Notes under the pieces: model-generated
What the model was told of the DNA's origin: nothing
Seen by the model: only the letters and a program-made list of their open reading frames with translations
Database searches by the model: none
In this document: one piece after another, positions 19,123 through 35,548 of the stretch
How positions within the stretch are numbered: position 1 is the first letter of the stretch
Layout: each line of letters opens with the position of its first letter
Made by a program: the position numbers and the translations under genes
Assembly (NCBI GenBank): GCA_913020665.1
Contig: CAJVZI010000003.1
Coordinates: 6,122-70,121, forward strand
DNA: 64,000 nucleotides
Source: an uncultured bacterium
Lineage (GTDB): Bacteria; Fidelibacterota; Marinisomatia; Marinisomatales; UBA1611
Reading direction: 5' to 3'

Positions 19123-19138
19123 CGCCCATAACGCCTAT
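19121..19138 (+). promoter_or_regulatory. tandem 9-mer site a (AACGCCCAT AACGCCTAT), candidate operator upstream of the 10-gene lipid operon
   Basis: This is a degenerate copy of the AACGCTCAT x2 motif. It sits 51 nt before the ATG at 19190 and 6 nt upstream of a TTGTAT -35-like hexamer. Confidence 0.45.
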
Positions 19139-19189
19139 TTTATATTGTATTTGAATTATATTTAAAATAAACTAAACATAGACGAAATT

Positions 19190-20415: not shown

Positions 20416-20427
20416 TTATATTATATT

Positions 20428-20973
20428 TTGCGATATTTGATTCTTCATATCTTTTTCTTGGTCTCCTTATTAATTATAGGTTGTAATAACAATTTAGATA
20501 AAAGTGAATTATCAGAAATGAAGACAGTTGATTATGTAGATATAGAGCGATTTATGGGTGATTGGTATGTGATCGCTAATATCCCTACTTTTATTGAAAA
20601 AGGAGCAACCAATGCTATAGAGTCATATAAACTTGGTGATAAAGGGGTTATAGAAACAACTTTCACATTTTATCAGGACTCACCCGATGGAGAAAAAAAA
20701 GTTTATAGACCCAAAGGGTTCATATATAATACAGAGACCAACGCTGAATGGAGGATGCAATTTATTTGGCCATTCAAAATGCCATTTTTGATAATCGATC
20801 TAGATGATAATTATCAATTTACTGTTATTGGTTACCCATCTAGGAAGTATGTATGGATCATGGCGCGGGAACCAAAACTATCTGATGAAGTATATGAGGG
20901 TATTTTATCCAATCTTGCTGAAGTCGGGTATGATATATCTCAGATAAATAAAATACTGCAGCAATGGAATTAA
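20428..20973 (+). CDS. blc: bacterial lipocalin (Blc-like outer-membrane lipoprotein)
   Basis: It has a lipobox (LLIIGC), the lipocalin motif FMGDWYVIANIP and a later VIGYPSRKYVWIMAR segment. The start codon is TTG. Confidence 0.8.
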   Translation: MRYLILHIFFLVSLLIIGCNNNLDKSELSEMKTVDYVDIERFMGDWYVIANIPTFIEKGATNAIESYKLGDKGVIETTFTFYQDSPDGEKKVYRPKGFIYNTETNAEWRMQFIWPFKMPFLIIDLDDNYQFTVIGYPSRKYVWIMAREPKLSDEVYEGILSNLAEVGYDISQINKILQQWN

Positions 20974-20982
20974 TATCATAAA

Positions 20983-22233
20983 ATGAAGATCGCAATAATC
21001 GGCTCAGGTATCTCTGGGCTTACTGCAGGATATTTGCTTAGCAGGAACCATGATGTTACAATGTTTGAAAAGAACAATTATATAGGGGGCCATACACATA
21101 CTCATGATATTGAGTATGAAGGAAAAAATTGGGCAGTTGACTCTGGATTTATTGTATATAATGAATGGACCTATCCAAATTTTATTAAACTTCTTGACCA
21201 ACTTGATGTTGAACGTCAAGTAACTAGAATGGGTTTTAGCGTGAAATCTGAGAGTGAAGATCTCGAATATGCTGGACACTCCTTGAATGGACTTTTTGCT
21301 CAAAGGTCCAATCTTATAAGGCCATCTTTTTTAAAGATGTTGTATAATATGAAACGTTTTAACCAAGAGGCCAGAAAAGATCTCGCGGCCATTGATCCTC
21401 AAACAACATTAGGTGAGTATTTATTATCTAATAACTATTCTAATGAATTTATTCAACATTATATAATTCCAATCGGAGCTGCGATCTGGTCAACCGTGCC
21501 TAATAATATGATGAATATTCCTGCTGTTTTCTTCATTAGGTTTTTTGAGAATCACGGCCTATTGCAGATCGTTGATAGACCTGCATGGTGGGTCATAAAG
21601 GGGGGGTCAAAAACATATGTTGAAAAGATCACCTCTGGTTTCAAAGATAGTATAAGGCTTTCGACACCGGTGAAAAATGTGAAACGAGAAAAGGACTCTA
21701 TTATAGTACACTTTGGAAGCGAAGGAGAAAATACAGAAAGCTTTGATGCTATAGTTTTCGCTACACACAGTGACCAGTCCCTTGAAATCTTAGAGCAGCC
21801 AACAAAAGATGAAGAAGAGATACTTGGTGCCATAGAATACCAAAATAATAGTGCGATATTGCACTTCGATGAATCTATCCTTCCCAAAAGAAAAAATGCC
21901 TGGTCCAGCTGGAATTATTTACTTGATCAAGATCAAAATAAGCCTGTGGCTTTAACATACAATATGAATATTTTGCAAGGTCTCACTTGCTCACGAACTT
22001 TCTGTGTAACGTTGAATAGTCAAGATCTGGTTGACCCTGAGAAGGTCATTAAATATCTTAATTATGAACACCCACTCTTCACCGTGCCAAGTATAAATGC
22101 GCAGAAACAAAAACATAAGATCAATGGAGAAAACAACACCTATTATTGCGGAGCATATTGGCGCAATGGATTCCATGAAGATGGGGTGGTCAGTGCGCTG
22201 GATGTATGCAGTCATTTTGGAGAGACATTATGA
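20983..22233 (+). CDS. FAD-dependent oxidoreductase (amine-oxidase / phytoene-desaturase-like fold)
   Basis: The N-terminus has the dinucleotide-binding motif KIAIIGSGISGLTAGYLL ... FEKNNYIGGH. The C-terminal YCGAYWRNGFHEDG segment is typical of the cfa-cluster oxidoreductases. Confidence 0.85.
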   Translation: MKIAIIGSGISGLTAGYLLSRNHDVTMFEKNNYIGGHTHTHDIEYEGKNWAVDSGFIVYNEWTYPNFIKLLDQLDVERQVTRMGFSVKSESEDLEYAGHSLNGLFAQRSNLIRPSFLKMLYNMKRFNQEARKDLAAIDPQTTLGEYLLSNNYSNEFIQHYIIPIGAAIWSTVPNNMMNIPAVFFIRFFENHGLLQIVDRPAWWVIKGGSKTYVEKITSGFKDSIRLSTPVKNVKREKDSIIVHFGSEGENTESFDAIVFATHSDQSLEILEQPTKDEEEILGAIEYQNNSAILHFDESILPKRKNAWSSWNYLLDQDQNKPVALTYNMNILQGLTCSRTFCVTLNSQDLVDPEKVIKYLNYEHPLFTVPSINAQKQKHKINGENNTYYCGAYWRNGFHEDGVVSALDVCSHFGETL

Positions 22234-23012
22234 GTGTGTCTAATAAGAGTTTCATTTTTAGAGGGACTATCCGCCATAGACGTTTTACTCCATTTGATCA
22301 TTTTTTTACCTACCCTTTATTCATGATATATGTTGATCTAAATACGATCAAGGAAACTATCAAACGCTCATGGATGTGGAATATTGACAAACCAGCTATG
22401 ATCTCATTTAATAGAAATGACTATCATGGTGCAGGAAATGGTGATCTTGATTCGGCTGTTCGTAAGACCATATATAAACAAACTGGACATGAGGTTAAAG
22501 GGCCTATACGATTACTCACCCATTTAAGATATTTTGGATATTGTTTTAATCCAGTGAGTTTTTATTATTGTTTTAATGAAAGTGATACAGAGGTCGAACT
22601 GATCATGGCAGAAGTAACAAATACCCCATGGGATGAACGACATTCTTATGTAATAGATAAAAAAGCTAAAAAAGGAAAAGTGGATAATCTTGCAGCGGAT
22701 CTTAAAAAGAAATTACATGTTAGTCCATTTTGGGGGATGGATCATGAATATGAATGGCTTTTTAGTCAACCCAAAAAGAATTTAATGGTCAATATGATCA
22801 ATTATAAAGATGAAGAAAAGGTATTTGATGCCACATTGAATATGAAAAGGATACCATTTACCTTAGGAAACCTACTGAAACAGGTCGCAAGATTTCCATT
22901 TATCACCTTATTGGTTGTCTTTCGAATTCACTGGCAAGCATTTAAACTCTGGCTCAAAAAAGCGCCATATTTTATACATCCTGATAAGATCAAACTAATG
23001 AAAGGCAATTAA
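22230..23012 (+). CDS. DUF1365-family protein
   Basis: It carries GTIRHRRFTPFDHFFTYPLFMIYVDL and RLLTHLRYFGYCFNPVSFYYC, both characteristic of DUF1365. I chose the ATG at 22230, which forms an ATGA overlap with the upstream stop. The track start at 22206 is less likely. Confidence 0.75.
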   Translation: MSVSNKSFIFRGTIRHRRFTPFDHFFTYPLFMIYVDLNTIKETIKRSWMWNIDKPAMISFNRNDYHGAGNGDLDSAVRKTIYKQTGHEVKGPIRLLTHLRYFGYCFNPVSFYYCFNESDTEVELIMAEVTNTPWDERHSYVIDKKAKKGKVDNLAADLKKKLHVSPFWGMDHEYEWLFSQPKKNLMVNMINYKDEEKVFDATLNMKRIPFTLGNLLKQVARFPFITLLVVFRIHWQAFKLWLKKAPYFIHPDKIKLMKGN

Positions 23013-23016
23013 ATAT

Positions 23017-24288
23017 ATGAGTACAACGATGCAAGTAGATCATCTTGCGGATGGGGTCAAGACACATAAAAGATCCAGCTTCCTCATCTCTATATTCAAA
23101 AGTGGACTATTAAAGAAATTCCAAGGTCTAAGAACGGGGAACATACTAGTTTATGATGGGAACGATGAATTTTCTTTTGGAGATGATGGGTCAGATGAAA
23201 AAGTAGTTGTGAATATCCATTCGCAGGAATTCTATGTTATGGTTGGAAGCGGCGGAGCTTTAGGCCTTGCGGAGGCTTATATGGCAGGGTTCTGGTCTTC
23301 GGATAATGTGGTAAAGCTCTTTCAAATAATCTTAAGGAATAGGGATATCCTACTATCTCTTGAAAGAGGTTTTGCTAAACTTATTAAACCGATAAATAAA
23401 ATGATCCACCGTAGTAGACAAAATACACTTCAAGGCAGCAAAAAGAATATTGTAGCACATTATGATCTTAGTAATGATTTTTATAAGCTTTGGCTTGATC
23501 CAACAATGACATATTCTTGTGCATTTTTTAAGGATGAATCAGTAACCCTTGAAGAAGCATCCAAAGAAAAGTTGGATCGAATATGCAGAAAATTAAATTT
23601 ATCGGAGCAGGATTCTGTTCTGGAGATAGGTACAGGTTGGGGTAGCTTTTCAATTCATGCCGCAAAAAATTATGGTTGCAATGTTACCACTACAACCATA
23701 TCTGATGCTCAGTATGAATATGCAAGCTCTCGAATAAAAGAGGAGGGATTAGAATCAAAAATAACTCTCATTAATAAAGACTATCGTGAGTTGGATGGTA
23801 AATATGATAAGATTGTTTCAATAGAGATGATCGAAGCGGTTGGATACGAGTATATCTCAGGATTTTTCTCAAAATTATCATCTTTATTAAAAAGTAATGG
23901 ATTCATTGCGCTGCAGGGTATTACATACAATGATCAAAATTTTGATGTCTATAAAGATTCAGTAGATTTTATAAAAAAATACATATTTCCAGGTTCATGT
24001 TTAATCTCTATTTCGCAGATCACTGAAGTGATAAAAAAAGATACAGATCTTGCGATGATAGATATGGAAGATATTACAAAGCACTATGCCATAACCTTGA
24101 ATAGATGGAGGAAAAATTTTATTGATGTACTCCCTAAGGTAAAAGAGATGGGATATTCTCAAGCATTTATTAATATGTGGGAGTTTTACTTTTTATATTG
24201 TGAGGCTGGTTTTCTAGAAAGGAATATTGGAGATGTCCAATTGGTCTTTGCAAAATCTGGCACCAGAGATATAAATATTAATTATTAA
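23017..24288 (+). CDS. cyclopropane-fatty-acyl-phospholipid synthase family SAM-dependent methyltransferase (long form)
   Basis: It shows HYDLSNDFYKLWLDPTMTYSCAFF, the SAM motif VLEIGTGWGSF and a C-terminal WEFYFLYCEAGF segment. Confidence 0.9.
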   Translation: MSTTMQVDHLADGVKTHKRSSFLISIFKSGLLKKFQGLRTGNILVYDGNDEFSFGDDGSDEKVVVNIHSQEFYVMVGSGGALGLAEAYMAGFWSSDNVVKLFQIILRNRDILLSLERGFAKLIKPINKMIHRSRQNTLQGSKKNIVAHYDLSNDFYKLWLDPTMTYSCAFFKDESVTLEEASKEKLDRICRKLNLSEQDSVLEIGTGWGSFSIHAAKNYGCNVTTTTISDAQYEYASSRIKEEGLESKITLINKDYRELDGKYDKIVSIEMIEAVGYEYISGFFSKLSSLLKSNGFIALQGITYNDQNFDVYKDSVDFIKKYIFPGSCLISISQITEVIKKDTDLAMIDMEDITKHYAITLNRWRKNFIDVLPKVKEMGYSQAFINMWEFYFLYCEAGFLERNIGDVQLVFAKSGTRDININY

Positions 24289-24291
24289 CAT

Positions 24292-25326
24292 ATGATATCA
24301 AAACTAATTGAATTAGCAGAAAAGGGTTTGATCCCTGATTTTATGATCAGAGCAGGGATTGTGAGAAATTGTAAAAATCGACTACGAAATGAAAGCTCTT
24401 TTTCAAAACAAGAACTGGATGCAAAAAAGCAAAAGTGGGTCGAGCAAATGAAAGAGAGTCCTATTGCCCTTGTTCCAGAAAAAGCCAATGAACAACATTA
24501 TGAGGTCCCCCCATCATTTTTTGAAGAGGCTTTAGGCTCTAATCTAAAGTATAGCTCTGGCTATTGGCCTAGTAGCGAAACAACCCTTGATCAATCTGAA
24601 GTTTCTATGTTAGAGTTAAGCTGTGAAAGAGCAGAATTGAAAGATGGACAAAATATTCTTGAGCTTGGGTGTGGATGGGGTTCTCTAACTTGTTTTATGG
24701 CAAGCCAATATCCAAACAGTCAGATCACAGCAGTTAGTAATTCAAAAGACCAAAAGGAACATATTTTGAAAAGATGCGAAGATAGTGGTCTAGCAAATGT
24801 AAATGTTATTACGGCTGATATGAATGAATTTAGCACAGACCAAAGTTTTGATCGGGTTATATCAATAGAGATGTTTGAGCATATGAGGAATTATAAAAAA
24901 CTATTATCGAGAATTTCAACTTTCCTAGATATTAAAGGAAAATTATTTGTTCATATTTTCGCACATGATCATTTAGTCTATCCATTTGAGAATAAGGGAG
25001 ATGCAGATTGGATGGCCAGAGAATTTTTTTCAGGTGGGATGATGCCTTCTCATGACCTATTTGAATATTTTCAAGACGATCTTAAGGTTGAGAAGAGCTG
25101 GAGGGAGTCAGGGACTCATTATGAAAAGACATCCCTAGCCTGGCTAAATAAAATGGATAAGAATAAAAGCAAGATCATGGGAATATTTGAAAGCACTTAT
25201 GGCTTAGAAGATGCAAAAAAATGGTTTCAGAGATGGCGCATATTTTTTATGTCATGTGAAAAATTATTTGGATATAAAAATGGGACAGAGTGGGGTGTAT
25301 CCCATTACCGTTTCATCAAACATTAG
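24292..25326 (+). CDS. second CFA-synthase/mycolic-acid-methyltransferase-like SAM-dependent methyltransferase (short form)
   Basis: It shows QHYEVPPSFFEEALGSNLKYSSGYW, ILELGCGWGSL, ISIEMFEHM and WRIFFMSCEKLF. Confidence 0.85.
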   Translation: MISKLIELAEKGLIPDFMIRAGIVRNCKNRLRNESSFSKQELDAKKQKWVEQMKESPIALVPEKANEQHYEVPPSFFEEALGSNLKYSSGYWPSSETTLDQSEVSMLELSCERAELKDGQNILELGCGWGSLTCFMASQYPNSQITAVSNSKDQKEHILKRCEDSGLANVNVITADMNEFSTDQSFDRVISIEMFEHMRNYKKLLSRISTFLDIKGKLFVHIFAHDHLVYPFENKGDADWMAREFFSGGMMPSHDLFEYFQDDLKVEKSWRESGTHYEKTSLAWLNKMDKNKSKIMGIFESTYGLEDAKKWFQRWRIFFMSCEKLFGYKNGTEWGVSHYRFIKH

Positions 25327-25334
25327 ATCAATCT

Positions 25335-26051
25335 ATGGAAATACTAATATTTCTTTTCTGTCACTGGTATCTGTCGCTGTTCTTTCAGACATTCTTTTTA
25401 CATCGTTATGCTTCACACAATATGTTTAAAATGAGTCCGTTTTGGGAGAAGACCTTTTTCTTTCTTACTTTTATATTCCAAGGTTCATCATTTCTACATC
25501 CTGCAGCATATAGTGTAATGCATAGAAGACATCATTCGCATGCTGATACACCAAAAGACCCTCATTCGCCTGTTCATCTTAAAAATATTATTTCCTTCAA
25601 CCTGGCAACAGTGGTAGAATATAGAAAACTGGTCAACGAATTTATGAAAGGTGAAAGGACCATCACGGATGCTCCTAGGTGGCATCGATTAGAGTCGATT
25701 GCAGAATCTTTGTGGACCAGAGTAGCTTTTATATTCTTATATTTTTTATTTTATGTTTTTTTTGCAACCTCTACGTGGCAATACTTATTATTCCCATTAC
25801 ATATTACTATGGGTTCTATGCATGGCTTTATCGTTAATTGGTTTGGACATAAGACAGGTTACAGGAATTATGATTCAATGCCTGATAACTCAAAAAATAC
25901 TCTGCCTGTAGATTTTTTAATGATGGGGGAGCTATACCAGAATAATCATCATCGAAAGCCAAAAGAACTCAATTTCGCAGTGCGATGGTTTGAACTAGAT
26001 TTCGGGTACCTCGCAACATCAGTACTCAAAAGATTAAAAATAATATACTAA
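25335..26051 (+). CDS. membrane fatty-acid desaturase (acyl-lipid/acyl-CoA desaturase-like)
   Basis: Three histidine boxes are present: HRYASH, HRRHHSH and NNHHRKP. I chose the ATG at 25335 to avoid overlap with the upstream gene. Confidence 0.8.
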   Translation: MEILIFLFCHWYLSLFFQTFFLHRYASHNMFKMSPFWEKTFFFLTFIFQGSSFLHPAAYSVMHRRHHSHADTPKDPHSPVHLKNIISFNLATVVEYRKLVNEFMKGERTITDAPRWHRLESIAESLWTRVAFIFLYFLFYVFFATSTWQYLLFPLHITMGSMHGFIVNWFGHKTGYRNYDSMPDNSKNTLPVDFLMMGELYQNNHHRKPKELNFAVRWFELDFGYLATSVLKRLKIIY

Positions 26052-26057
26052 AGAATA

Positions 26058-26939
26058 ATGCCTCAGAATATTAAAGATTATATAGCGGTTATAATTGCTT
26101 TCTCTTTGGGCGCTTTAGTGGCAGTCGCAGGCTCTAATGGTGGTTATGAATATAAAGGTTACTCGATCTTGTTAATATGCATGGCCTTCAGCTTCCTATT
26201 ACATTGGATCGCTTTTTTACCATCATATTTGGCAAGAACAGAAAAATTTTATGATATAATAGGGACTGTTGCATATCTTACAGTTTTAGCTACAGCATCT
26301 TACTTAACAATCCTTTCAACTAATGGTCACCTGCAAATAAGGTCAATTATAACGATAGCTCTTGTTACCATATGGGCACTAAGATTAGGCTTATTTCTTT
26401 TCATTCGTGTTCTTAAGGCGGGAGAGGATCGAAGATTTCGAGAAGTGAAACAAAATTTCTCAAAGTTTTTAGTTTGGTGGAGTGTATCAGCGTTATGGGT
26501 CTTTCTTACTTCTGCAAATGCATTAACAATGATCATTAATAATGTTGGTTATTCTGATGATCTATATCTTTTTCTTGGTCTTCTTCTCTGGTTAGTAGGA
26601 TTTTCTTTCGAGGCCATAGCAGACGAGCAGAAAAGAAGGTTTAAATCTGATGTAAATAACAAAGATTCTTTTATTCAAACAGGTCTCTGGAGTATATCCA
26701 GGCATCCAAATTATTTTGGTGAAATATTATTATGGATAGGAATGGCGGTTATTGCCTTTCCTACGCTGGAAGGTTGGCAGTATGTAACATTGATCTCACC
26801 CTTTTTTATTTATGTACTCCTCACTAGGGTGAGTGGTGTAAATCTTTTAGAGCAACGTGCAGATCAAAAATGGGGTGGCGACGAAGACTATGAGATATAC
26901 AAGAAGAATACACCTGTCTTAATTCCATATATAAAATAA
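26058..26939 (+). CDS. DUF1295 / steroid-5-alpha-reductase-like membrane protein
   Basis: It is multi-pass and carries the family hallmark GLWSISRHPNYFGEILLWIG. Confidence 0.8.
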   Translation: MPQNIKDYIAVIIAFSLGALVAVAGSNGGYEYKGYSILLICMAFSFLLHWIAFLPSYLARTEKFYDIIGTVAYLTVLATASYLTILSTNGHLQIRSIITIALVTIWALRLGLFLFIRVLKAGEDRRFREVKQNFSKFLVWWSVSALWVFLTSANALTMIINNVGYSDDLYLFLGLLLWLVGFSFEAIADEQKRRFKSDVNNKDSFIQTGLWSISRHPNYFGEILLWIGMAVIAFPTLEGWQYVTLISPFFIYVLLTRVSGVNLLEQRADQKWGGDEDYEIYKKNTPVLIPYIK

Positions 26940-26949
26940 GAGATATGGA

Positions 26950-27525
26950 ATGCCCCGCTCCCTTTTTATCACTACAGTTATAATATTACTCTTTTTACAA
27001 AATTCAATTATGGCCATTGAAACTCCAAATTTTAAATTAATAAAAAAAGAAGGCGAATTTGAGATCCGTGAATATGAGCCTATGATCATTGCTATGACAA
27101 AGGTAAAAAGTGGATACAGGGAAGCATCTAGTACAGGATTTAGAAGAATTGCAAATTATATTTTTGGTGGAAATCAGAAGCAAATGGAAATCAAAATGAC
27201 AGCACCTGTTATCACTGATGTGCCTAATGTAAAAGGTATGTATGATATACTTTTTGTAATGCCATCCCAGCATAAATTTGATGATCTCCCAATTCCTGAT
27301 GATGATAATGTTGAACTCAAGGTGAAAGAACTAGGTAAAACAGCTGTTATACAGTTTGGTGGTTGGGCAACTGAGAGCAGAGCAACTCACTACAAGGAAA
27401 AATTAGAACAGTTTATTGAAACTAGTGGATATGAGATCAACAGCGATTACATGGTAGCTCAGTATAATTCGCCATGGGCTCTACCCCCATTTAGAAGAAA
27501 TGAAATTATTATAATGATAAAATAA
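26950..27525 (+). CDS. SOUL heme-binding family protein (secreted)
   Basis: It has a signal peptide and SOUL motifs (ETPNFKLIKKEGEFEIREYEP, GFRRIANYIFGGN, KMTAPV, YNSPWALPPFRRNEI). Confidence 0.8.
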   Translation: MPRSLFITTVIILLFLQNSIMAIETPNFKLIKKEGEFEIREYEPMIIAMTKVKSGYREASSTGFRRIANYIFGGNQKQMEIKMTAPVITDVPNVKGMYDILFVMPSQHKFDDLPIPDDDNVELKVKELGKTAVIQFGGWATESRATHYKEKLEQFIETSGYEINSDYMVAQYNSPWALPPFRRNEIIIMIK

Positions 27526-27529
27526 TAAT

Positions 27530-27547
27530 AACGCTCATAACGCTCAT
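27530..27547 (+). promoter_or_regulatory. tandem 9-mer site b (AACGCTCAT AACGCTCAT), candidate operator
   Basis: This is a perfect direct repeat. It sits 7 nt upstream of TTGAAG (27555-27560) and 60 nt before the ATG at 27608. An inverted half-site AGCGTT follows at 27559-27564. Confidence 0.5.
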
Positions 27548-27607
27548 TTAATACTTGAAGCGTTTAGAAATATTTTATAACCTTCCACTATCAATTATCA
27601 GCAAAGT

Positions 27608-28099
27608 ATGTCTTTTGAACAAAAAGTATTAATTAGAGGTGTAGAGCCACTCGATGTGATCAGGTGTTTTCATGACCGTAAGTTCGTAGAGTTTCTTACA
27701 GCGTTACAACCAGTGAAGATAAAAAGTTGGAGAGGGATTAACGATGAAATGGAAGCTTCCTTTTCCTTTTGGTTTTTTGGTTGGAGAGAGATAAGAGTTG
27801 TGCACAAGAATTATAGAGTTACTAGGAGCTCACTAGAGTTTGAGGATTTAGGGATGAAGCTTCCTTTTGGCTTATCCCACTGGAACCATCATCATATTGT
27901 TGAGTTACATGAGAAAGGTACCGTTATTGTAGATAAAGTTGAGATGAGCCATCAAAGCCTAGTAAAAAAATATTTTATAATTCCCATCATGTTGTTTCCT
28001 GTTTTTATTAGGCGCTTTACTTATAGAATTTGGTTCTATCTAATGGAGGGCAATACATGGGATTCCTTTAAGAGATTTAAGTCCAATGAAAAAATTTAG
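27608..28099 (+). CDS. hypothetical protein, possibly SRPBCC-fold with C-terminal hydrophobic helix
   Basis: It is an ORF in the operon context behind motif site b. There is no confident family match by eye. Confidence 0.4.
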   Translation: MSFEQKVLIRGVEPLDVIRCFHDRKFVEFLTALQPVKIKSWRGINDEMEASFSFWFFGWREIRVVHKNYRVTRSSLEFEDLGMKLPFGLSHWNHHHIVELHEKGTVIVDKVEMSHQSLVKKYFIIPIMLFPVFIRRFTYRIWFYLMEGNTWDSFKRFKSNEKI

Positions 28100-28571
28100 T
28101 GCCATTTTAATATTATTTGTATTTGCTTGTGAACCAAAAGAGAAATCTAGTGGATATATGTTCAATGAGAGATGGATTTCAGTAGATGGTCAAAGAAGCG
28201 AGGTCTGGTTTCAAGATTGGTCTAGTTATATACGGCTTTTTATTAAGACGCAAAAAGATACTCTGAAAGTCAGTCCAAGTCCCTATGCAACTAGAACAAA
28301 AAACAAACCATATCTCTATCCCAAGCCGTATAAGTTATATGAGGTTGACCAATTAATAGGAAACTTGACATGGGAAAAAGAATTTTCCTGGGAAAATGGG
28401 TACGAAAATAACTTTGCATGGAAGGTCGACCGAAGTAATCCAAAGAGAACGTTACCTCTTGACTATGAGGGTATGGCCAAAAATGAGGGTGGAAAACTTA
28501 GGCTAATCATCAAAGAAAATGATAAATTGATCTTTAATACCCTGCTTGAACCTCTCAAATATAAAAAATAA
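28086..28571 (+). CDS. hypothetical lipoprotein
   Basis: It has a lipobox (LILFVFAC) and overlaps the upstream gene by 14 nt. Confidence 0.5.
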   Translation: MKKFSAILILFVFACEPKEKSSGYMFNERWISVDGQRSEVWFQDWSSYIRLFIKTQKDTLKVSPSPYATRTKNKPYLYPKPYKLYEVDQLIGNLTWEKEFSWENGYENNFAWKVDRSNPKRTLPLDYEGMAKNEGGKLRLIIKENDKLIFNTLLEPLKYKK

Positions 28572-28581
28572 TATATAATAT

Positions 28582-28599
28582 AACGCTCATAACGCTCAT
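28582..28599 (+). promoter_or_regulatory. tandem 9-mer site c (AACGCTCAT AACGCTCAT), candidate operator
   Basis: This perfect direct repeat is identical to site b over 25 nt (28580-28604 versus 27528-27552). It sits 7 nt upstream of a consensus TTGACA. Confidence 0.5.
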
Positions 28600-28606
28600 T
28601 TAATTC

Positions 28607-28634
28607 TTGACATTGATTATATGGGCATTATAAT
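28607..28634 (+). promoter_or_regulatory. sigma-70-type promoter (TTGACA, 16-nt spacer, TATAAT) for the 28658-31035 operon
   Basis: A perfect -35 lies at 28607-28612 and a perfect -10 at 28629-28634, 23 nt before the ATG at 28658. Confidence 0.55.
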
Positions 28635-28657
28635 TTTCGTCAACTTATGGAGCAATT

Positions 28658-28939
28658 ATGTCAATATTAGATGCAGTCGCCAGAGGCGCAGACCTCAAAC
28701 ACTTTAACGAGAAAAAAGAGGTCAAGAATAATTTTGATGCGCGGAAAGCAGACCAAGACCTCAAAGCTTGCCCTGTGTGCAAGGCGGTATGGGAAATTAT
28801 GGTCTTCAATAAGACCATTGATTACAAATATTATCACAACTTCCCCAGATATGGAAAAGAGAAAGCCGTCTGTCCAAGTTGTACGATCAGGATTAGGAAT
28901 AAGTATTATCACAATGCAGAGGTGCAGGACCCAGCATGA
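28658..28939 (+). CDS. small zinc-ribbon protein (CPVC ... CPSC), unknown function
   Basis: Two CxxC pairs lie 35 aa apart. It has an SD-like GGAG and an ATGA overlap with the next gene. I prefer it over the overlapping alternative-frame ORFs. Confidence 0.55.
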   Translation: MSILDAVARGADLKHFNEKKEVKNNFDARKADQDLKACPVCKAVWEIMVFNKTIDYKYYHNFPRYGKEKAVCPSCTIRIRNKYYHNAEVQDPA

Positions 28940-29241
28940 GCCTAACTTTTATCGATCATCTCGCACTCGAATCCTCCGATATCAATAGATCGGTAAGGTG
29001 GTATAAAAAGCAATTTAATTGTGAGATAAAATATCAAGATAGCTCATGGGCTCTTATCAGGTTCGATAACATTTCATTAGCCTTAGTTACTCCTGGTGAA
29101 CATCCTCCTCACTTTGCAATAGTTGATGAGAACGTAAGGCGCCTTAGAGGCCACAAGGTGCACAGGGATGGAATTGCATACAAGTATGAACCCGATCCCG
29201 ATCTAAATGTAATTGAAAAAATAGATAGGAGATCATCATGA
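28936..29241 (+). CDS. VOC (glyoxalase/bleomycin-resistance/dioxygenase) family protein
   Basis: It shows the VOC pattern FIDHLALESSDINRSVRWYKKQF ... ISLALVTPGEHPPHFA. Confidence 0.75.
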   Translation: MSLTFIDHLALESSDINRSVRWYKKQFNCEIKYQDSSWALIRFDNISLALVTPGEHPPHFAIVDENVRRLRGHKVHRDGIAYKYEPDPDLNVIEKIDRRSS

Positions 29242-29417
29242 CTAGCGTTGATGTAATTACAAATGATAACTACTGCATTATTTCATCATTTATAGAAGAT
29301 GCTGAACAGCTAGTTATTAAAGTTCAAGAATTAACAGCTGATGGTTGGGCGGTATCAGGTGGAATAGCGTCTTCAAGTAGCAAGCTTTTTCAAGCGATGA
29401 CCCGTAAAACAATATGA
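29238..29417 (+). CDS. unlisted 59-aa ORF, DUF1737-like small protein
   Basis: It translates to MTSVDVITNDNYCIISSFIEDAEQLVIKVQELTADGWAVSGGIASSSSKLFQAMTRKTI. It has ATGA overlaps at both ends (29238-29241 and 29414-29417). It falls just below the 60-aa cutoff of the ORF track. Confidence 0.5.
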   Translation: MTSVDVITNDNYCIISSFIEDAEQLVIKVQELTADGWAVSGGIASSSSKLFQAMTRKTI

Positions 29418-30109
29418 ACGTCTTAATATTAGGAGCAGCCGGTGGTATTGGTTCTCAACTGGTTTCTGATTTAGCAGAGTTGCATAATCTCCTTCTGGGT
29501 TACAATCAGAATATGCCTGTAGCCCAATCTGCTAAATTGGAGCCAGTTGATGCTTGTAGTTTTGAATCAGTACAATCGTTTGTGCAGACAGGGCTAGATG
29601 AATTTGGCTCAGTCGATTCCATTGTAAACTTGCCTGGAAACCTGATCCTTAAACCCGCTCACCTTTCGACGGAAGAAGAATTCTATCAGTCCATCGATAT
29701 CAATCTTAAATCAGCTTTTGCTGTTGTCAGAGCTGCTGGATCTATACTAAGGGACTGTTCAATTGTACTCATGTCGACCGCAGCGGTGAGAGTGGGGTTA
29801 GCTAATCACGAGCTCATCTCCTGTGCAAAATCAGGTGTGGAGGGCCTCGCACGGTCTGCTGCCAAGACCTATGCTAAAAAAAATATTAGAGTGAATACGG
29901 TTGCACCGGGGCTAGTTGACACCCCACTTTCTTCTAAAATAGTTAATAACCAAATGGCACTCAATGTCAGCAAAAAAATGCATGCTACAGGTGAAATAGG
30001 AAAACCAAAAGATATTAGTAATATGATCTCCTTTTTGATCGATCCTGAAAATAATTGGATAACAGGTCAAAAATTTGTCGTAGATGGAGGTCTAAGTTCT
30101 ACAAAATAG
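29414..30109 (+). CDS. short-chain dehydrogenase/reductase (SDR)
   Basis: It shows ILGAAGGIGSQL, a catalytic-region segment (CAKSGVEGLARSAAKTYA) and IRVNTVAPGLVDTP. Confidence 0.85.
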   Translation: MNVLILGAAGGIGSQLVSDLAELHNLLLGYNQNMPVAQSAKLEPVDACSFESVQSFVQTGLDEFGSVDSIVNLPGNLILKPAHLSTEEEFYQSIDINLKSAFAVVRAAGSILRDCSIVLMSTAAVRVGLANHELISCAKSGVEGLARSAAKTYAKKNIRVNTVAPGLVDTPLSSKIVNNQMALNVSKKMHATGEIGKPKDISNMISFLIDPENNWITGQKFVVDGGLSSTK

Positions 30110-30118
30110 GAGTAAACA

Positions 30119-30442
30119 ATGAAAAAACCAGCCTTAAGAGAAAAAAGATCAAAATCAAAAGTTTTTAACGAAACGAACTGGACCAAGTCATCAAAGACTG
30201 TGGGACAGTATATTTTTAGGCGTTTATCATTAGATCAGTCAGATAAGGAACTTTCCAGAATAAGACCACGTCATTGCCAAAGTCAATTAATTGTCTCAAG
30301 CAAAGAAATTGATATGTATGTCAGTGACTACCTTAATATGGTTGATAGAAAGAAAAAAGAATCAACACGTCAAAATGGTAATTGGTCAAAAGCAAGATCA
30401 TCAACTAATGGAAAACAAAGCAACGTTATAGCTCGCTGTTAA
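30119..30442 (+). CDS. hypothetical Lys/Arg/Ser-rich basic protein
   Basis: It is an ORF within a tight operon. I recognise no family. Confidence 0.4.
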   Translation: MKKPALREKRSKSKVFNETNWTKSSKTVGQYIFRRLSLDQSDKELSRIRPRHCQSQLIVSSKEIDMYVSDYLNMVDRKKKESTRQNGNWSKARSSTNGKQSNVIARC

Positions 30443-30444
30443 TT

Positions 30445-31035
30445 ATGTTAATTAGATCATGGAGGAAAAAGATAATGGTAGGAATTCTAGTAACAGCAGT
30501 ATCAGGGCTTGCATCAGCCATGTTTAGTAAGAGCTCAATATCAGCAGAGCCTGGAGCTAGGTCTAGTAGTTCATTTTATGATATTAGCCTGCCAGACATA
30601 AATAACGAGCAAATACAACTTGATAAATTTAAAGGTAAAAAACTACTTATTGTGAATGTCGCATCCCGTTGCGGTTACACTTCTCAGTACAAAAAGCTAC
30701 AAGAGCTATATGAGAGACACGGTGATAAATTGGAGATAATTGCAGTACCCTGTAATGATTTTGGATATCAAGAGCCTGGTTCCGCTGAACAGATCAAAAA
30801 CTTTTGTGATATTAATTATGGCGTAACATTTTCAATCGCATCAAAACAAAAGATCAAATCGTCGCCCCAAAGTGAGATCTACAACTGGCTTTCAGATCCT
30901 AAATTAAATGGATGGAATGATCAGCTCCCTTCCTGGAACTTTTGTAAGTACTTAATAAGTGAGCAAGGTGAGCTTATGCATTTCTACAGGAGCAGTGTCG
31001 ATCCGATGAGTGAAGAGATTTTAAGTATTCTATAA
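30445..31035 (+). CDS. glutathione peroxidase (Cys-type), membrane-anchored or secreted
   Basis: It shows the GPx signatures LLIVNVASRCGYTSQY and IIAVPCNDFGYQEPGS, plus WNFCKYLI. Confidence 0.9.
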   Translation: MLIRSWRKKIMVGILVTAVSGLASAMFSKSSISAEPGARSSSSFYDISLPDINNEQIQLDKFKGKKLLIVNVASRCGYTSQYKKLQELYERHGDKLEIIAVPCNDFGYQEPGSAEQIKNFCDINYGVTFSIASKQKIKSSPQSEIYNWLSDPKLNGWNDQLPSWNFCKYLISEQGELMHFYRSSVDPMSEEILSIL

Positions 31036-31107
31036 AGAATATATAGATCTCTTTTAAACCTGTTAAGGTTTCACAGTCTTTTATTTAAGTCACTATCATA
31101 GATAAGA

Positions 31108-32592
31108 ATGAAGGCCGTATTCATATATCCCAACCAGTTGTTTGAGAATCATCCATCTTTATCAAGGAGTAGAAAGATATTCTTGGTGCAAGACCCTCTA
31201 TTTTTTTCTGATAAACAATATCCAGTGGCATTTCACAAAAAGAAAATACTTTTACATTTCCTATCAATGGATGATTACAGAGATAATCTGGTGGATAGAG
31301 GATATGATGTTGAAGTCATTGCGTTCAATAGATTGCAAACAAAAGATCATACGCAGAAGATCATTAAAGAATATGAACTGTCAGAGATACATATTGCTGA
31401 TGTTGTAGACTATACTCTTGAAAAAAGAATCAAAGATGCAGCTTCTAAATTAAATGTAAGGCTATATTGGTATAACTCACCGATGTTCTTGCTCAACAAG
31501 GATGAAGTAGAAAATGATTTTAGAAAAAAGAATTTTCACTTTATGTCCAACTTCTACAAAAAACAAAGACGCAGGTACAATCTATTGATGGATGATGAAG
31601 GTAAACCGGAAGGAGGGAAATGGAGTTTTGATTTAGAAAATAGAAAAAAATTACCAAAGGGCATTCAAATTCCAGCAATAACAAAATTTGAGTACAACAA
31701 TAATAAAATTTTACGTGGAAATAGATTTATTAATAAATATTTTAAAAATAATATAGGGACTTCCAAAGATTTCAACTATCCTGTAAATCACAAACAAAGC
31801 AGGTTTGCATTTGATCAGTTTTTAGAGCATAAATTTCAATTATTTGGTCCTTATGAAGATGCTATATCTAAGCACAACCATAGCTTATTTCACTCAATAT
31901 TAACTCCATATCTTAATATTGGATTAATTACACCTAAGGAAATAATACAGAAAGTTATGGACTTCTCAGGTCTTAACTCTATACCATTGAATTCTATCGA
32001 GGGGTTTCTTAGGCAGATAATAGGATGGCGTGAGTTCATTAGGGGTGTATATACTGTGGATGGCGTAAAACAAAGAACGAGGAACTATTGGGGTTTTACA
32101 AAGGCTATTCCAAAAACATTTTATGATGGAACAACAGGTCTTGAACCCCTAGACAATTCTATTTCTCGTTGCTTGAAACATGGATATGCACATCATATCG
32201 AGAGACTGATGATCTTAGGTAATATTATGATACTCTCTCGCTTTGATCCAGACTCTGTATATCAATGGTTTATGGAATTTTTTATTGATGCTTATGATTG
32301 GGTTATGGTACCAAATATTTATGGGATGAGTCAATTTGCTGATGGCGGTTTAATGTCTACAAAGCCATACATAAGTGGAAGTAATTACATATTAAAAATG
32401 AGCGACTATAAAAAGGGTAGGTGGTCAGGTGTCTGGGATGCTCTATATTGGGAATTTATCAATTCAAATAGAGAATTCTTTTTGAAAAACCATAGAATGG
32501 CAATGATGGTATCAATGTATGATAAAAAACCAAAAAATATTAGATCAGAGTATTCATTTATCTATAAAGATTATCAATTAATGATTAGTTAA
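31108..32592 (+). CDS. cryptochrome/photolyase-family protein of the COG3046 / prokaryotic (6-4)-photolyase (CryB/PhrB) type
   Basis: It shows IGWREFIRGVY, GYAHHIERLMILGN, FIDAYDWVMVPNIYGMSQFADGG and KPYISGSNYILKMSDY. Confidence 0.8.
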   Translation: MKAVFIYPNQLFENHPSLSRSRKIFLVQDPLFFSDKQYPVAFHKKKILLHFLSMDDYRDNLVDRGYDVEVIAFNRLQTKDHTQKIIKEYELSEIHIADVVDYTLEKRIKDAASKLNVRLYWYNSPMFLLNKDEVENDFRKKNFHFMSNFYKKQRRRYNLLMDDEGKPEGGKWSFDLENRKKLPKGIQIPAITKFEYNNNKILRGNRFINKYFKNNIGTSKDFNYPVNHKQSRFAFDQFLEHKFQLFGPYEDAISKHNHSLFHSILTPYLNIGLITPKEIIQKVMDFSGLNSIPLNSIEGFLRQIIGWREFIRGVYTVDGVKQRTRNYWGFTKAIPKTFYDGTTGLEPLDNSISRCLKHGYAHHIERLMILGNIMILSRFDPDSVYQWFMEFFIDAYDWVMVPNIYGMSQFADGGLMSTKPYISGSNYILKMSDYKKGRWSGVWDALYWEFINSNREFFLKNHRMAMMVSMYDKKPKNIRSEYSFIYKDYQLMIS

Positions 32593-32639: not shown

Positions 32640-32657
32640 TTGAGCGTAATAAGCGTT
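32640..32657 (-). promoter_or_regulatory. tandem 9-mer site e, reverse orientation (AACGCTTAT TACGCTCAA on the minus strand)
   Basis: This is a degenerate copy of the same motif, within the 203-bp non-coding gap. Confidence 0.35.
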
Positions 32658-32719
32658 ATTAAGACTGTAAAATTAAATATTTAAAGAATTAGGTTTACTT
32701 TATAACATCATATATAAGG

Positions 32720-32753
32720 GTCCCTGTGACTAAGTGGTGAGAGTCACAGGGAC
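32720..32753. other. perfect 12-bp stem / 10-nt loop hairpin (GTCCCTGTGACT ... AGTCACAGGGAC)
   Basis: It is a GC-rich perfect inverted repeat in an AT-rich gap. Neither side has a clean U-tract. Confidence 0.5.
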
Positions 32754-32795: not shown

Positions 32796-33188
32796 ATGAC
32801 TTACAAAAACATTTACTGGTATTTTTGCATACTCATTTTTGTTCTAGGCCAGCCATTATTATTTATTGATTTTAATACAGGGGCGTCCATTTTCCTTGGT
32901 ATGCTCGCACCAGCAATTATGAGCTATATAAATATTCAATTAATTGAAAGATTGAGTAAAGAAAAGGGAAACCTAATGGCATTTGGTTTCAATATGATGC
33001 AATTTATCGTCAAATCTATATTTTTGTGTTCTCTTACATATTTAGGAGTCAAGATCATTAAACTTGATTTTAGGATTTTTGTACCTCTCCTTTGTTTAAC
33101 ATGGTTTGTTTTTCATTTGATCGAGGCATTCTTTACAAATAGCCTGATTAAGAAAAGCATAATAAATAGCGTAAAAACTGAATTGTGA
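32796..33188 (+). CDS. small four-TM membrane protein, unknown function
   Basis: It is a hydrophobic 130-aa ORF lying between motif sites e and d. Confidence 0.5.
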   Translation: MTYKNIYWYFCILIFVLGQPLLFIDFNTGASIFLGMLAPAIMSYINIQLIERLSKEKGNLMAFGFNMMQFIVKSIFLCSLTYLGVKIIKLDFRIFVPLLCLTWFVFHLIEAFFTNSLIKKSIINSVKTEL

Positions 33189-33211
33189 TATAAATGTATT
33201 ATTAATAATAT

Positions 33212-33229
33212 AATGCTCAAAACGCTCAT
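33212..33229 (+). promoter_or_regulatory. tandem 9-mer site d (AATGCTCAA AACGCTCAT), candidate auto-regulatory operator
   Basis: It sits 41 nt before the ATG of the MerR-like regulator gene. Confidence 0.4.
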
Positions 33230-33270
33230 AATATGTTTTAATTATTAAGAAATTAGGAGTATATTTAACT

Positions 33271-34155
33271 ATGAGATACCTCAGTTCTAAAGATGTCGCA
33301 GAAATACTAGGCATAAACATCTCAACTCTCAAACGCTGGACAGACAGTGGTGTATTGGAGTGTTCTAAAACAGCAGGTGGGCATAGGAAGTTCACTATGC
33401 AACATATTCGTAATTTCTATAAAAACAAGGGTGCCTCTGGAAGAAATAGTAATCTTGGTCTTGAAAATATCCAACATAAGAAAGTATATGATCTAATTAA
33501 CAAAAAAGATTTTAGTGGGCTTGCAAGAATACTAGCAGATGCCAGCTTGGAATCGGATGAGTTAAGTGTCAACACGGTCATAAATGGTGCTTATATGAAG
33601 GGAATCAACGTAGAGCTTATCTGTGATGAAATAGTTGAGCCTGCAAGTATGATAGTTGAGAACGCTCTTAGGCAAGGATACCTAAGTCATGTTGAAACAT
33701 TTATAAGTAGGAAAATGATGACACGTGTAGTAGAGGGTCTCAACCAAAATAAACCTAACGGTTCATTCAATGGTAAGACCGCTCTCTGTGTCAACTTTGA
33801 AGATAATTTACCTGACCTAGGTGTGGTTATGTCAGAAGTCGTACTTAGACATAATGGATATAATGTACTCAATACTGGATCTCATGCGGACCTTGGGAAT
33901 CTTCAAACAGTGATTGAAAAGAAGAGAGTCGACCTGGTTCTATTCTTTCTTTGTGATATGCAATGTTGTATGGCAACAGTAAAAGATAATCTAGAAAAAA
34001 CAGAAATAAAGACAAAAGAAATTACTGAATTAGCTAGGGAGCAAGGCGTTAAGGTATTGTTTGGTGGAACAGGCCTGCAGTTTTTACCAAGTGTTATCAA
34101 TTCAACAGATGCCACTTTTATAAAATATTCCGATCTCAAACAGATCATAGTTTAA
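33271..34155 (+). CDS. MerR-family HTH regulator fused to a B12-binding-like (helical bundle + Rossmann) domain; CarH/LitR-like architecture
   Basis: The N-terminus is a MerR/excisionase-type HTH (YLSSKDVAEILGINISTLKRWTDSGVL). The C-terminal GKTALCVNFEDNLPDLGVVMSEVVLRHNGYNVLNTG ... VDLVLFF segment follows the cobalamin-binding Rossmann pattern. Confidence 0.7.
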   Translation: MRYLSSKDVAEILGINISTLKRWTDSGVLECSKTAGGHRKFTMQHIRNFYKNKGASGRNSNLGLENIQHKKVYDLINKKDFSGLARILADASLESDELSVNTVINGAYMKGINVELICDEIVEPASMIVENALRQGYLSHVETFISRKMMTRVVEGLNQNKPNGSFNGKTALCVNFEDNLPDLGVVMSEVVLRHNGYNVLNTGSHADLGNLQTVIEKKRVDLVLFFLCDMQCCMATVKDNLEKTEIKTKEITELAREQGVKVLFGGTGLQFLPSVINSTDATFIKYSDLKQIIV

Positions 34156-34183: not shown

Positions 34184-35524
34184 ATGATCGATCCAAGTAG
34201 GATTCGTACTCTCAAAGCTGGTGCGTTTGGTGGGAAAGCTGTCCTCTATTGGATGATCAGAGACAAGAGAGTATCAGATAATTGGTCTTTGCTTGTAGCG
34301 CAACAGATCGCTATAAAAAATAAGGTACCCCTAATTGTTTGCTTCCAATTTATCGGGAATTTCCCGGACTCAAACATCAGACAAAATGGATTTTTATTTA
34401 AAGGGCTATTAGAAACACGACATACATTACAAAAATTGAATATTGAGTTTTTATTTTTACAAGGTAGGCCTGAAAAAGTAATTAATCAACTAATTGAAAA
34501 GAGGTCTATTGGTACGGTCGTCGTTGATCATAATCCTTTAAATGTTTACCGTAAGAGAATAAAAAGGGTGATTGGTAAAACGGATATCCCGTTTTACCAA
34601 GTAGATGCTCACAACATTGTTCCATGCTGGAAAGCATCCGGCAAAAAAGAGTATGCGGCATATACAATAAGGCCAAAGATCAAAAATAATTTGAAGAGAT
34701 ATCTAACGGATATACCTCAGGTTATTAGACATCCTTATGGTACTTCACAAATGAAAGATCTATCACTAAATAGCCTTTTAAGTGGTATTGTCCAAGATAG
34801 CACAGTTAAAGAAGTCGATTGGGTCAATCCTGGTGAAATAGCTGCAAAAGATATCTTGAACAAATTAAAGACTACATTAAAAGGTTATAGCTCTAATCGA
34901 AATGATCCAACAAAAGCAGCATTAAGTGATTTAAGCCCCTATTTTCATTTTGGTCATATTGCTCCACAAAGAGTTGCATGGGAGATACATAAATCAAAAT
35001 TGCAAAAAGAGGACAAGGATGCATTTCTTGAAGAGATGATCATACGGCGCGAATTATCTGATAACTTTTGTGAATATGAACCAGAATATGATCAATTTGA
35101 AGGGTTCCATGCCTGGTCACAAAAAACATTAAATGAACACCGTAATGATGAAAGAGAATATATTTATCCATTAGGTCAATTTGAAGCTGCGGAAACTCAT
35201 GATGATTTGTGGAATGCAGCCCAGAATGAGATGAAAATTACTGGAAAAATGCATGGTTATATGCGTATGTATTGGGCAAAGAAAATATTAGAATGGACCC
35301 CATCACCTGAGATCGCTCAACAGATTGCTATCGATTTGAATGATAAATACGAGTTAGATGGAAGAGACCCCAATGGATATACAGGTATTGCTTGGAGCAT
35401 AGGTGGGATACATGACAGGGCTTGGTTTGAAAGGCCTATATTTGGCAAGATAAGATATATGAATTATAATGGATGTAAATCTAAGTTTGATGTCATGAAA
35501 TATATTGAAATGCATAACTCATAA
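34184..35524 (+). CDS. phr: class II CPD deoxyribodipyrimidine photolyase
   Basis: The N-terminus is class II-specific (IRTLKAGAFGGKAVLYWMIRDKRVSDNWSLL). The C-terminus shows GKMHGYMRMYWAKKILEW and DGRDPNGYTGIAWSIGGIHDRAW. Confidence 0.9.
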   Translation: MIDPSRIRTLKAGAFGGKAVLYWMIRDKRVSDNWSLLVAQQIAIKNKVPLIVCFQFIGNFPDSNIRQNGFLFKGLLETRHTLQKLNIEFLFLQGRPEKVINQLIEKRSIGTVVVDHNPLNVYRKRIKRVIGKTDIPFYQVDAHNIVPCWKASGKKEYAAYTIRPKIKNNLKRYLTDIPQVIRHPYGTSQMKDLSLNSLLSGIVQDSTVKEVDWVNPGEIAAKDILNKLKTTLKGYSSNRNDPTKAALSDLSPYFHFGHIAPQRVAWEIHKSKLQKEDKDAFLEEMIIRRELSDNFCEYEPEYDQFEGFHAWSQKTLNEHRNDEREYIYPLGQFEAAETHDDLWNAAQNEMKITGKMHGYMRMYWAKKILEWTPSPEIAQQIAIDLNDKYELDGRDPNGYTGIAWSIGGIHDRAWFERPIFGKIRYMNYNGCKSKFDVMKYIEMHNS

Positions 35525-35548
35525 AATGTCCAAATTGCAAAATACCTA

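Follow-up and report, generated by a model that had tools for sequence, protein, structure and literature searches.

The window analysed here is a stretch of 64,000 nucleotides (nt) from an uncultured bacterium (contig CAJVZI010000003.1, positions 6,122 to 70,121, forward strand). It contains five copies of a tandem 9-mer with the consensus AWAACGCTCAWAACGCTCAW, confined to one 14-kb island. This element is probably the operator to which the product of the regulator gene at 33271-34155 (+) binds; that regulator would act as a repressor and belong to a CarH-like family with a 9-bp repeat code.

Perfect copies of AACGCTCATAACGCTCAT were found at 27530-27547 (+) and 28582-28599 (+). Degenerate copies were found at 19121-19138 (+, three mismatches), 33212-33229 (+, two mismatches) and 32640-32657 (-, three mismatches). 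All five had been located by eye in an earlier, sequence-only reading of the window, and the search reproduced them. None of 100 shuffled sequences reached five or more matches to AACGCTCATAACGCTCAT (mean 0.04). The degenerate pattern AAYGCYYAWWAYGCYYAW, searched with no mismatches, matched exactly the five sites. With a position weight matrix (PWM) based on 73 related sites, the five scored 23.2-34.4 bits and the next-best position in the 64 kb scored 10.1 bits, in agreement with the earlier reading, which had noticed no further copy in the window by eye. The copies were also said to be intergenic, and they are, with site 1 overlapping just the stop codon of the upstream gene.

Site 1 (19119-19138, +, ATAACGCCCATAACGCCTAT, 23.2 bits) touches the stop codon of a TMEM164 gene and ends 6 nt 5' of TTGTAT (19145-19150). 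Site 2 (27528-27547, +) is a perfect ATAACGCTCATAACGCTCAT with 34.4 bits, and the candidate -35 element TTGAAG (27555-27560) starts 7 nt downstream. Site 3 (28580-28599, +) has the same sequence and score. A consensus sigma-70 promoter (28607-28634, +) starts 7 nt past it, with TTGACA at 28607, a 16-nt spacer and TATAAT at 28629-28634; this is the sole 12/12 promoter match within 18.9-33.4 kb. The copies at 27530 and 28582 have in common an identical stretch of 25 nt (ATAACGCTCATAACGCTCATTTAAT), after which come a single mismatch and CTTGA. Site 4 (33210-33229, +, ATAATGCTCAAAACGCTCAT, 29.9 bits), the predicted autoregulatory site, lies 41 nt before the regulator ATG, with a weak -35 (TTTAAT, 33237-33242) and a -10 (TATATT, 33260-33265) that stands 5 nt before the ATG. 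The common flank, the promoter hexamers of sites 2 and 3 with their spacings, and the distances of 6 and 41 nt at sites 1 and 4 are all as first described. On the minus strand, an 11/12 promoter-like match (TTGACG-16-TATAAT, 28616-28643) overlaps the site-3 promoter; it probably arises from the AT-rich, near-palindromic nature of the -10 region there.

Site 5 (32640-32659, -, ATAACGCTTATTACGCTCAA on the minus strand, 23.6 bits) is operator-like and reversed, and is located 136 nt upstream of the gene for a 130-residue membrane protein (32796-33188). It is not kept in the closest relatives. Reversed sites precede operons of a rhodopsin gene and the 130-residue membrane protein gene in other genomes; the window carries the membrane protein gene but no rhodopsin, and site 5 may be the remnant of a rhodopsin-type promoter.

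Conservation of the repeat in Marinimicrobia

Homologues of the regulator are abundant in marine metagenomes, and those with a name belong to Candidatus Neomarinimicrobiota (SAR406, Marinimicrobia). Loci with relatives of 52-83% identity were fetched from 31 genomes as 20-kb stretches (L001 and following). Thirty of them include the start of the regulator gene (L029 is truncated), giving 31 loci together with the window; hit counts cover the window and loci (540 kb). A site of at least 19 bits ends 40-43 nt upstream of the regulator start codon in 31/31 loci, down to 52% protein identity. The sequence-only reading had made its operator idea depend on the motif being present upstream of orthologous operons, where it was found in 30 related genomes.

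More sites stand in front of operons orthologous to those of the window, namely the operon that starts with the gene for Zn93 (a 93-residue Cys4 protein), the gene for a 163-residue protein and the fatty-acid operon. Site 1 has an ortholog at the start of L003. Orthologs of site 2 were found at L001 4198, L002 4196, L009 4208 and L028 4377, and orthologs of site 3, upstream of the Zn93 gene, in L001-L005, L007-L011, L013, L014, L020, L023, L028 and L030. Zn93-gene sites also occur among the metagenome matches listed (L038, L061, L110, L132 and L146). More distant genomes have sites ahead of operons with proteorhodopsin, an SRPBCC protein and an NmrA-like protein. Proteorhodopsin genes (Pfam Bac_rhodopsin) were located downstream of the motif or divergent from it at L018 6169, L019 6800 and L021 6088 among the related genomes, and at L040 2803 and L137 7394 among the metagenome contigs.

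Alignment of the 73 sites gave, for each position, an information content of 1.2-2.7 bits within the repeat cores and 0.7-0.8 at degenerate positions, with distal flanks mostly at or below 0.3 bits. The consensus reads A-W-A-A-c-G-C-T-C-A-W-A-A-C-G-C-T-C-A-W and continues into an A/T-only tract, and is followed by cTTGac at +25 to +30 and a -10 at +49 to +54. The unit AWAACGCTC recurs with a period of 9, usually twice and at times three or four times (L028, L003, L021, L158).

The PWM scan of the 540 kb produced 82 matches of at least 18 bits and three between 12 and 18 bits, none of which was between 15 and 18; about 0.4 matches at or above 15 bits are expected from shuffling. All 82 strong matches (82/82) lie in regulon promoter regions, being intergenic or overlapping just the last codons of the upstream gene. 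Because of this placement and the score gap, the motif is a discrete regulon-specific element and not a dispersed repeat. Genome-wide scatter like that of repetitive extragenic palindromic (REP) elements, named in the sequence-only reading as an outcome against an operator, was not seen in the 540 kb scanned. It is extremely improbable that the motif is a REP-like dispersed or mobile element, or one that works at the RNA level, such as a 5' untranslated region motif or a riboswitch. The copies are short, repeated and placed in AT-rich intergenic DNA, as such elements would be, and those after a -10 would be transcribed. REP-like repeats, however, are palindromic and occur in many copies in unrelated intergenic DNA, whereas the five copies in 64 kb all fall within the 14-kb island and are direct repeats, which have no hairpin potential. 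The copies keep a fixed register to promoters, and most lie upstream of the -35, so outside the transcript that they control. Rfam gave no match in the window. A promoter of extracytoplasmic function (ECF) sigma type (AAC ... CGT) was considered and rejected by inspection: AAC and CG are 9 nt apart, not about 16, and separate -35 and -10 elements follow the motif.

The regulator and its DNA-binding domain

The regulator (33271-34155, +, 294 residues) consists of a BldC/MerR-like winged helix-turn-helix (HTH), a four-helix bundle like that of CarH and CtMerR, and a Rossmann domain. Its N-terminus matches Pfam MerR_1 (37.1 bits, cut-off 21.6) and HTH_17 (38 bits, cut-off 27); the Pfam B12-binding score (24.3) is below the cut-off (32.1). 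A profile of the regulator family matched CtMerR (8JBS) with E = 3.1e-20 over residues 5-268, and BldC (6AMK, 6AMA) with E = 2e-4 to 4e-4 over the N-terminal 45 residues (32% identity over 44 residues). TtCarH was not reached by sequence with this profile at E <= 1. An AlphaFold model (pLDDT 81) gave a target-normalised TM-score of 0.80 with CtMerR 8JBS, and it also matched full-length TtCarH (5C8D/E/F).

The DNA-binding domain is, judged by its sequence, homologous to that of BldC. BldC residues Arg30, Trp31, Gly44, His46, Arg47 and Arg48 align with the family-invariant R22, W23, G36/G37, H38, R39 and K40. BldC forms head-to-tail multimers on DNA with one subunit per 9-bp direct repeat, AATTxxxx(C). 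Its wing residues His46/Arg47/Arg48 enter the narrowed A/T minor groove, Arg30 contacts the guanine of a YpG step in bidentate fashion, and Trp31 is located where two subunits meet. When the motif unit is read as AWAA-CGCT-C followed by A, its layout and 9-bp period are those of the BldC repeat: an A/T-rich 4-mer, then four bases later a C-G pair at a YpG step, with a variable number of repeats. A BldC-like domain would explain why the period is 9 bp and not the 11 bp of CarH. BldC differs in other respects. It is a stand-alone domain of 68 residues in Actinobacteria, a developmental regulator with no sensor that is monomeric off DNA, whereas the regulator here is 294 residues long and ends in a CarH-like domain; the optimised BldC site has the core AATTCGGAC and not AWAACGCTC.

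CarH and class I LitR (Thermus thermophilus, Bacillus megaterium, Myxococcales), which are photoreceptor-repressors that use adenosylcobalamin, have the same order of MerR-type winged helix, four-helix bundle and Rossmann B12-type domain, judged by the fold match. They bind tandem direct repeats head-to-tail at the -35 or -10 and control photoprotective genes and their own gene, as is predicted here. CarH repeats, unlike those of the window, are 11 bp long (nnnnTnnACAn) and occur in three to four copies. A search for a CarH-type operator (three TnnACA at 11-bp spacing, one mismatch allowed) gave 0 matches in the window. The sequence-only reading had compared the sites with CarH operator geometry while noting that repeat sequence and period differ. 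The comparison stands for the CarH-like fold and for tandem repeats at the -35 or -10, and the difference in period (9 bp versus 11 bp) was upheld; in both its DNA-binding domain and the 9-bp period, the system resembles BldC instead.

Among solved structures, the crystallised CtMerR of Chloracidobacterium thermophilum (8JBS, 8JBT) is the nearest relative across almost the whole protein, and it has the same HTH_17-type DNA-binding domain. At the locus of its ortholog in C. thermophilum B (genome 62% GC), 9-bp repeat pairs were found 170 nt upstream of the gene (AAAACGCTCAAAGCGGTCAA) and at the annotated start (GAAACGTTCAAAACGTTCAC). These pairs are at L160 4830-4849 and 5004-5023 (CP002514.1, about 203268-203461).

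Distant cases were collected from an exact-pattern scan of metagenome contigs and from look-ups of regulator homologues. The scan returned at least 120 stretches, in which real sites are mixed with chance matches in high-GC coding DNA. Four loci of 12.9 kb were examined: L152 (Calditrichaceae), L154 (a deep-branching Marinimicrobia metagenome-assembled genome, MAG), L156 (a 'Deferribacteres' MAG) and L158 (an unassigned JGI contig). Their sole PWM matches were two to three sites within the divergent intergenic region between the regulator gene and carotenoid (crt) or DUF4397 genes, with at least one site facing each divergent gene. The four homologues are of the canonical B12 type, with Wx9EH and the His ligand both kept. 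Across the distant-phylum loci of 11-13 kb, the motif beside the regulator homologue was the single matching place per locus. Phyla with the motif at the homologue's own promoter are Calditrichota, Acidobacteriota (including the CtMerR ortholog) and Bacteroidota, where a regulator-photolyase operon has AATCCGCTCAATCCGCTCAT 7 nt before TTGACA. From these sequences, the one feature that accompanies the motif in every phylum is the DNA-binding domain of the regulator; sensor details and regulated genes vary. L158 has four tandem 9-bp units (AACGCTCGT ATCGCTCAA ATCGTCTAA ATCGCTTAT, 5832-5869, -) right after TTGACT-17-TATAAT, facing the DUF4397 gene. Four units fit a tetramer that would use all four DNA-binding domains.

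Another factor, for example a small stand-alone HTH_17 protein of BldC/Xis type, might bind the motif, with the 33271 regulator a mere member of the regulon. Two phage-like contigs (L041 5386-5470, L042 4055-4139) carry three repeat pairs exactly 33 bp apart near an HTH_Tnp_1_2 gene (a terminase/transposase-type HTH) and have no obvious CarH-like gene on the fragment, and in L113 the motif is coupled to a short HTH_17 protein that is built differently. The triple pairs of the phage-like contigs could be a phage operator array in the same 9-bp code. A separate factor is nevertheless quite improbable: across four phyla the sole consistent neighbour of the motif is the regulator homologue, while the regulated genes vary (crt, DUF4397, photolyase, rhodopsin); the distance from site to regulator start is fixed in 31/31 loci; and no second HTH gene was seen in the island.

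In marine contigs, genes that repeatedly adjoin the motif encode an ECF sigma factor (25-30 nt downstream), PsiE-like membrane proteins, DoxX_2 proteins and DUF4397 lipoproteins (L079, L127; L057, L063, L071, L089, L093, L112; L065, L121, L128, L139). The regulon may extend beyond the kinds of genes seen in the window.

Promoter geometry and predicted mode of action

Two arrangements of site and promoter were observed. In the first, which covers the forward sites of the window and most SAR406 sites, 5-8 nt separate the end of the repeat pair from a downstream -35, in many cases a near-consensus one. In L014, L016, L018, L019, L020 and L030 the repeat starts 0-9 nt after a clear -10, and this second arrangement was also found on the carotenoid side of the divergent loci in other phyla. 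Relatives in which the motif abuts the -10 have clear TTGnnn-16/17-TAtAAT promoters. Automatic sorting of promoters was noisy in AT-rich DNA and left 28/73 sites unclassified, so the statements on geometry refer to the clear cases. Classical MerR activators differ from both arrangements, with a palindrome inside a spacer of 19-20 bp there and a direct repeat outside a spacer of 16-18 bp here.

Repression is favoured because of the sites after the -10, the strong target promoters and the fact that all characterised CarH/LitR proteins repress. The latter are dark-state repressors on tandem repeats at the -35 or -10. The site-3 promoter is a perfect consensus and would need no activator.

The mechanism that follows is inferred, as regards DNA binding, repression, the oligomeric state and the kind of signal. 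The winged-helix domains would bind head-to-tail, one per 9-bp unit, in the manner of BldC. Wing residues His38/Arg39 would enter the A/T-rich minor groove, and at the CpA/TpG step Arg22 would recognise the guanine of the conserved C-G pair. The CarH-like C-terminal domain would oligomerise the regulator. In the non-induced state, the bound oligomer would block RNA polymerase, either by lying just upstream of the -35 and UP region and spilling onto it, the layout seen at each of the four forward sites in the window, or directly after the -10, as in the relatives. At the upstream sites the oligomer might extend over the A/T tract and the -35, or compete with the alpha subunit of the polymerase; cooperative extension onto degenerate repeats is documented for the BldC type. 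A light or photo-oxidative signal would then release the regulator from DNA. Release would derepress the photolyase, the cryptochrome-like DPRP, lipid-remodelling genes, the peroxidase and the regulator itself, and in related genomes proteorhodopsin.

Several observations weigh against this proposal. The four forward sites of the window occupy about -60 to -43, ahead of the -35, and this is also the classic position of a class I activator. A conserved third repeat over the -35, which could receive the hypothesised third and fourth protomers, was sought and not found; the region shows just the A/T tract (+17 to +21) and, ahead of the -35, enrichment of a C (17/34). The promoter scan of this 35% GC DNA returned 70 matches against 65 expected, so the promoter calls are noisy. 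Some exact metagenome matches are located in high-GC coding DNA, where they are due to chance, or in phage-like contigs. The sensor domain has neither Wx9EH nor the cobalt-ligating His, so release would probably need a signal other than adenosylcobalamin. Finally, the authors of the CtMerR paper infer just 'an alternative DNA-binding site' and report no operator.

The same protein on the same site could instead be an activator, which would bind at about -51 when induced, recruit RNA polymerase through the alpha C-terminal domain and repress solely where the site follows the -10. The distance of 5-8 nt from the end of the repeat to the -35, seen at all four forward sites in the window and at most sites of SAR406, would suit this, as would the weak -35 elements of several such promoters (TTGAAG, TTGTAT, TTTAAT). 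BldC acts both positively and negatively at different promoters. Activation is nonetheless unlikely. The best-conserved targets have near-consensus promoters (TTGACA-16-TATAAT in the window and L005, TTGACA-16-TATAAA in L002), whereas activator-dependent promoters are usually poor. The same sequence in the same orientation also stands right after the -10 in relatives, and no characterised CarH/LitR protein is anything other than a repressor.

Sensor domain, regulated genes and significance

The sensor domain of the SAR406 clade departs from that of canonical relatives in three respects. In the Wx9EH motif, which lies over the adenosyl group, L133 stands in place of Trp and T143/F144 in place of EH. 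The cobalt-ligating His of E/DxHxxG is replaced by an invariant Pro181 (NLPDLG). An 8-residue Cys-rich insertion (LCDMQCCMA) occupies the canonical SxL region, with Cys228, Cys232 and Cys233 invariant. The cobalamin signature is kept in the canonical relatives L085, L123 and CtMerR and is absent in the SAR406 clade. CtMerR binds adenosylcobalamin (AdoCbl), is photoactive and has both Wx9EH and the His ligand; the window protein, which differs from CarH in the same way, has neither. Since the B12 ligands are lost, AdoCbl photochemistry is unlikely for the window protein and the signal is probably not AdoCbl. The assay with and without AdoCbl that was proposed in the sequence-only reading may for this reason show no effect. 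The regulator may instead sense through a different cofactor, through redox chemistry at thiols or an Fe-S cluster, or by way of a partner protein. Together with the lost ligands, the Cys-rich insertion suggests B12-independent cofactor or redox sensing, and the heme-binding SCHIC domain of AppA was among the fold matches of the AlphaFold model.

A plausible analogy for the ligand-less SAR406 protein is the partner mode of CarA (Myxococcus) and class II LitR (PplR1, PmlR2, Pseudomonas). These CarH-family repressors have no B12 photochemistry of their own and leave DNA through a partner, the antirepressor CarS or a short LOV protein. Homologues of these two partners, CarS and LOV, were not identified among the genes of the island. 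The Pseudomonas class II LitR light regulon (photolyase, cryptochrome-like protein, furan fatty-acid synthase) comprises the same kind of genes as here. The operators are unlike the 9-bp unit: inverted repeats or 11-bp repeats for CarA, and TGTACA-N12-TGTACA for class II LitR. The latter is absent in the window, where a single match with two mismatches at 53451 is below chance expectation.

The sites head co-directional operons. Site 1 is followed by an operon (19190-27525, +) encoding DUF2878, lipocalin, amine oxidase, DUF1365, cyclopropane-fatty-acid (CFA) synthase, CMAS-like, fatty-acid desaturase, DUF1295 and SOUL proteins. CFA synthase and the CMAS-like protein are both cyclopropane-fatty-acid-synthase-like methyltransferases. 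Behind site 2 (27608-28571, +) lie the genes for the 163-residue protein, of unknown function, and a 161-residue lipoprotein. Site 3 precedes the main regulated operon (28658-32592, +), with Zn93, 101-residue and 59-residue proteins, an SDR protein, a 107-residue protein, glutathione peroxidase and the DPRP photolyase-related protein. The synteny of this operon, with the site in front, is conserved in relatives. Zn93 (28658-28939), the product of the first gene of this best-conserved regulated operon, has two CxxC pairs, no Pfam match and 76-85% identity in distant contigs. A role for it as a partner or antirepressor is pure conjecture.

Downstream of the regulator gene (34184-36175, +) lie genes for a DNA photolyase (34184-35524) and a methyltransferase (35549-36175), which are probably co-transcribed with it. 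The gene order regulator, photolyase, methyltransferase (REG-PHR-MT208) is conserved in relatives. The -10 (TATATT) 5 nt before the regulator ATG, with no conserved Shine-Dalgarno sequence, recurs in L001, L005, L006, L009 and L010. This spacing suggests that the regulator mRNA is leaderless and autoregulated. At 32720-32753, between the genes for DPRP and the 130-residue membrane protein, there is a hairpin with a loop of 10 nt and a perfectly paired stem of 12 bp (GTCCCTGTGACT / AGTCACAGGGAC). It occurs at the same place in L002, has no T run after it, and could be a terminator or an RNA element.

A literature search on AACGCTCA and TGAGCGTT returned primers and aptamers only, and no description of the motif was found in the literature searched on Marinimicrobia, photolyase, MerR and CarH. 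With good confidence, the genomic evidence points to a CarH-like light or stress repressor that uses a BldC-type 9-bp operator code, is spread over several phyla and has lost the B12 ligands in SAR406. A more specific proposal is offered tentatively. AWAACGCTC might be the hitherto undescribed operator code of a phylum-spanning CarH-like family (Marinimicrobia, Calditrichota, Acidobacteriota with CtMerR, Bacteroidota), whose BldC/Xis-type winged helices would polymerise head-to-tail on the 9-bp units. The SAR406 sensor might have swapped cobalamin for another cofactor or chemistry (SCHIC-like heme, Fe-S or thiol), with the invariant Cys cluster replacing the lower-ligand loop.

For the family, an operator would be supplied for regulators that combine HTH_17 and B12 domains. 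These include CtMerR, which has a solved structure, green-light AdoCbl photochemistry and no known DNA target, and whose candidate operator would be useful for building optogenetic tools. The evolution of these proteins would be modular, the CarH sensor module pairing with either a BldC-type (9-bp) or a CarH-type (11-bp) mode of DNA binding, and one lineage would have retained the operator yet dropped the B12 ligands. For Marinimicrobia, which are globally abundant and have no cultured model, the island would provide a concrete light or photo-oxidative stress regulon, and in some members proteorhodopsin expression would be linked to a defined cis-element. If the proposal is true, this abundant uncultured ocean lineage would have a B12-independent light or photo-oxidative switch for photolyases, lipid remodelling and proteorhodopsin.

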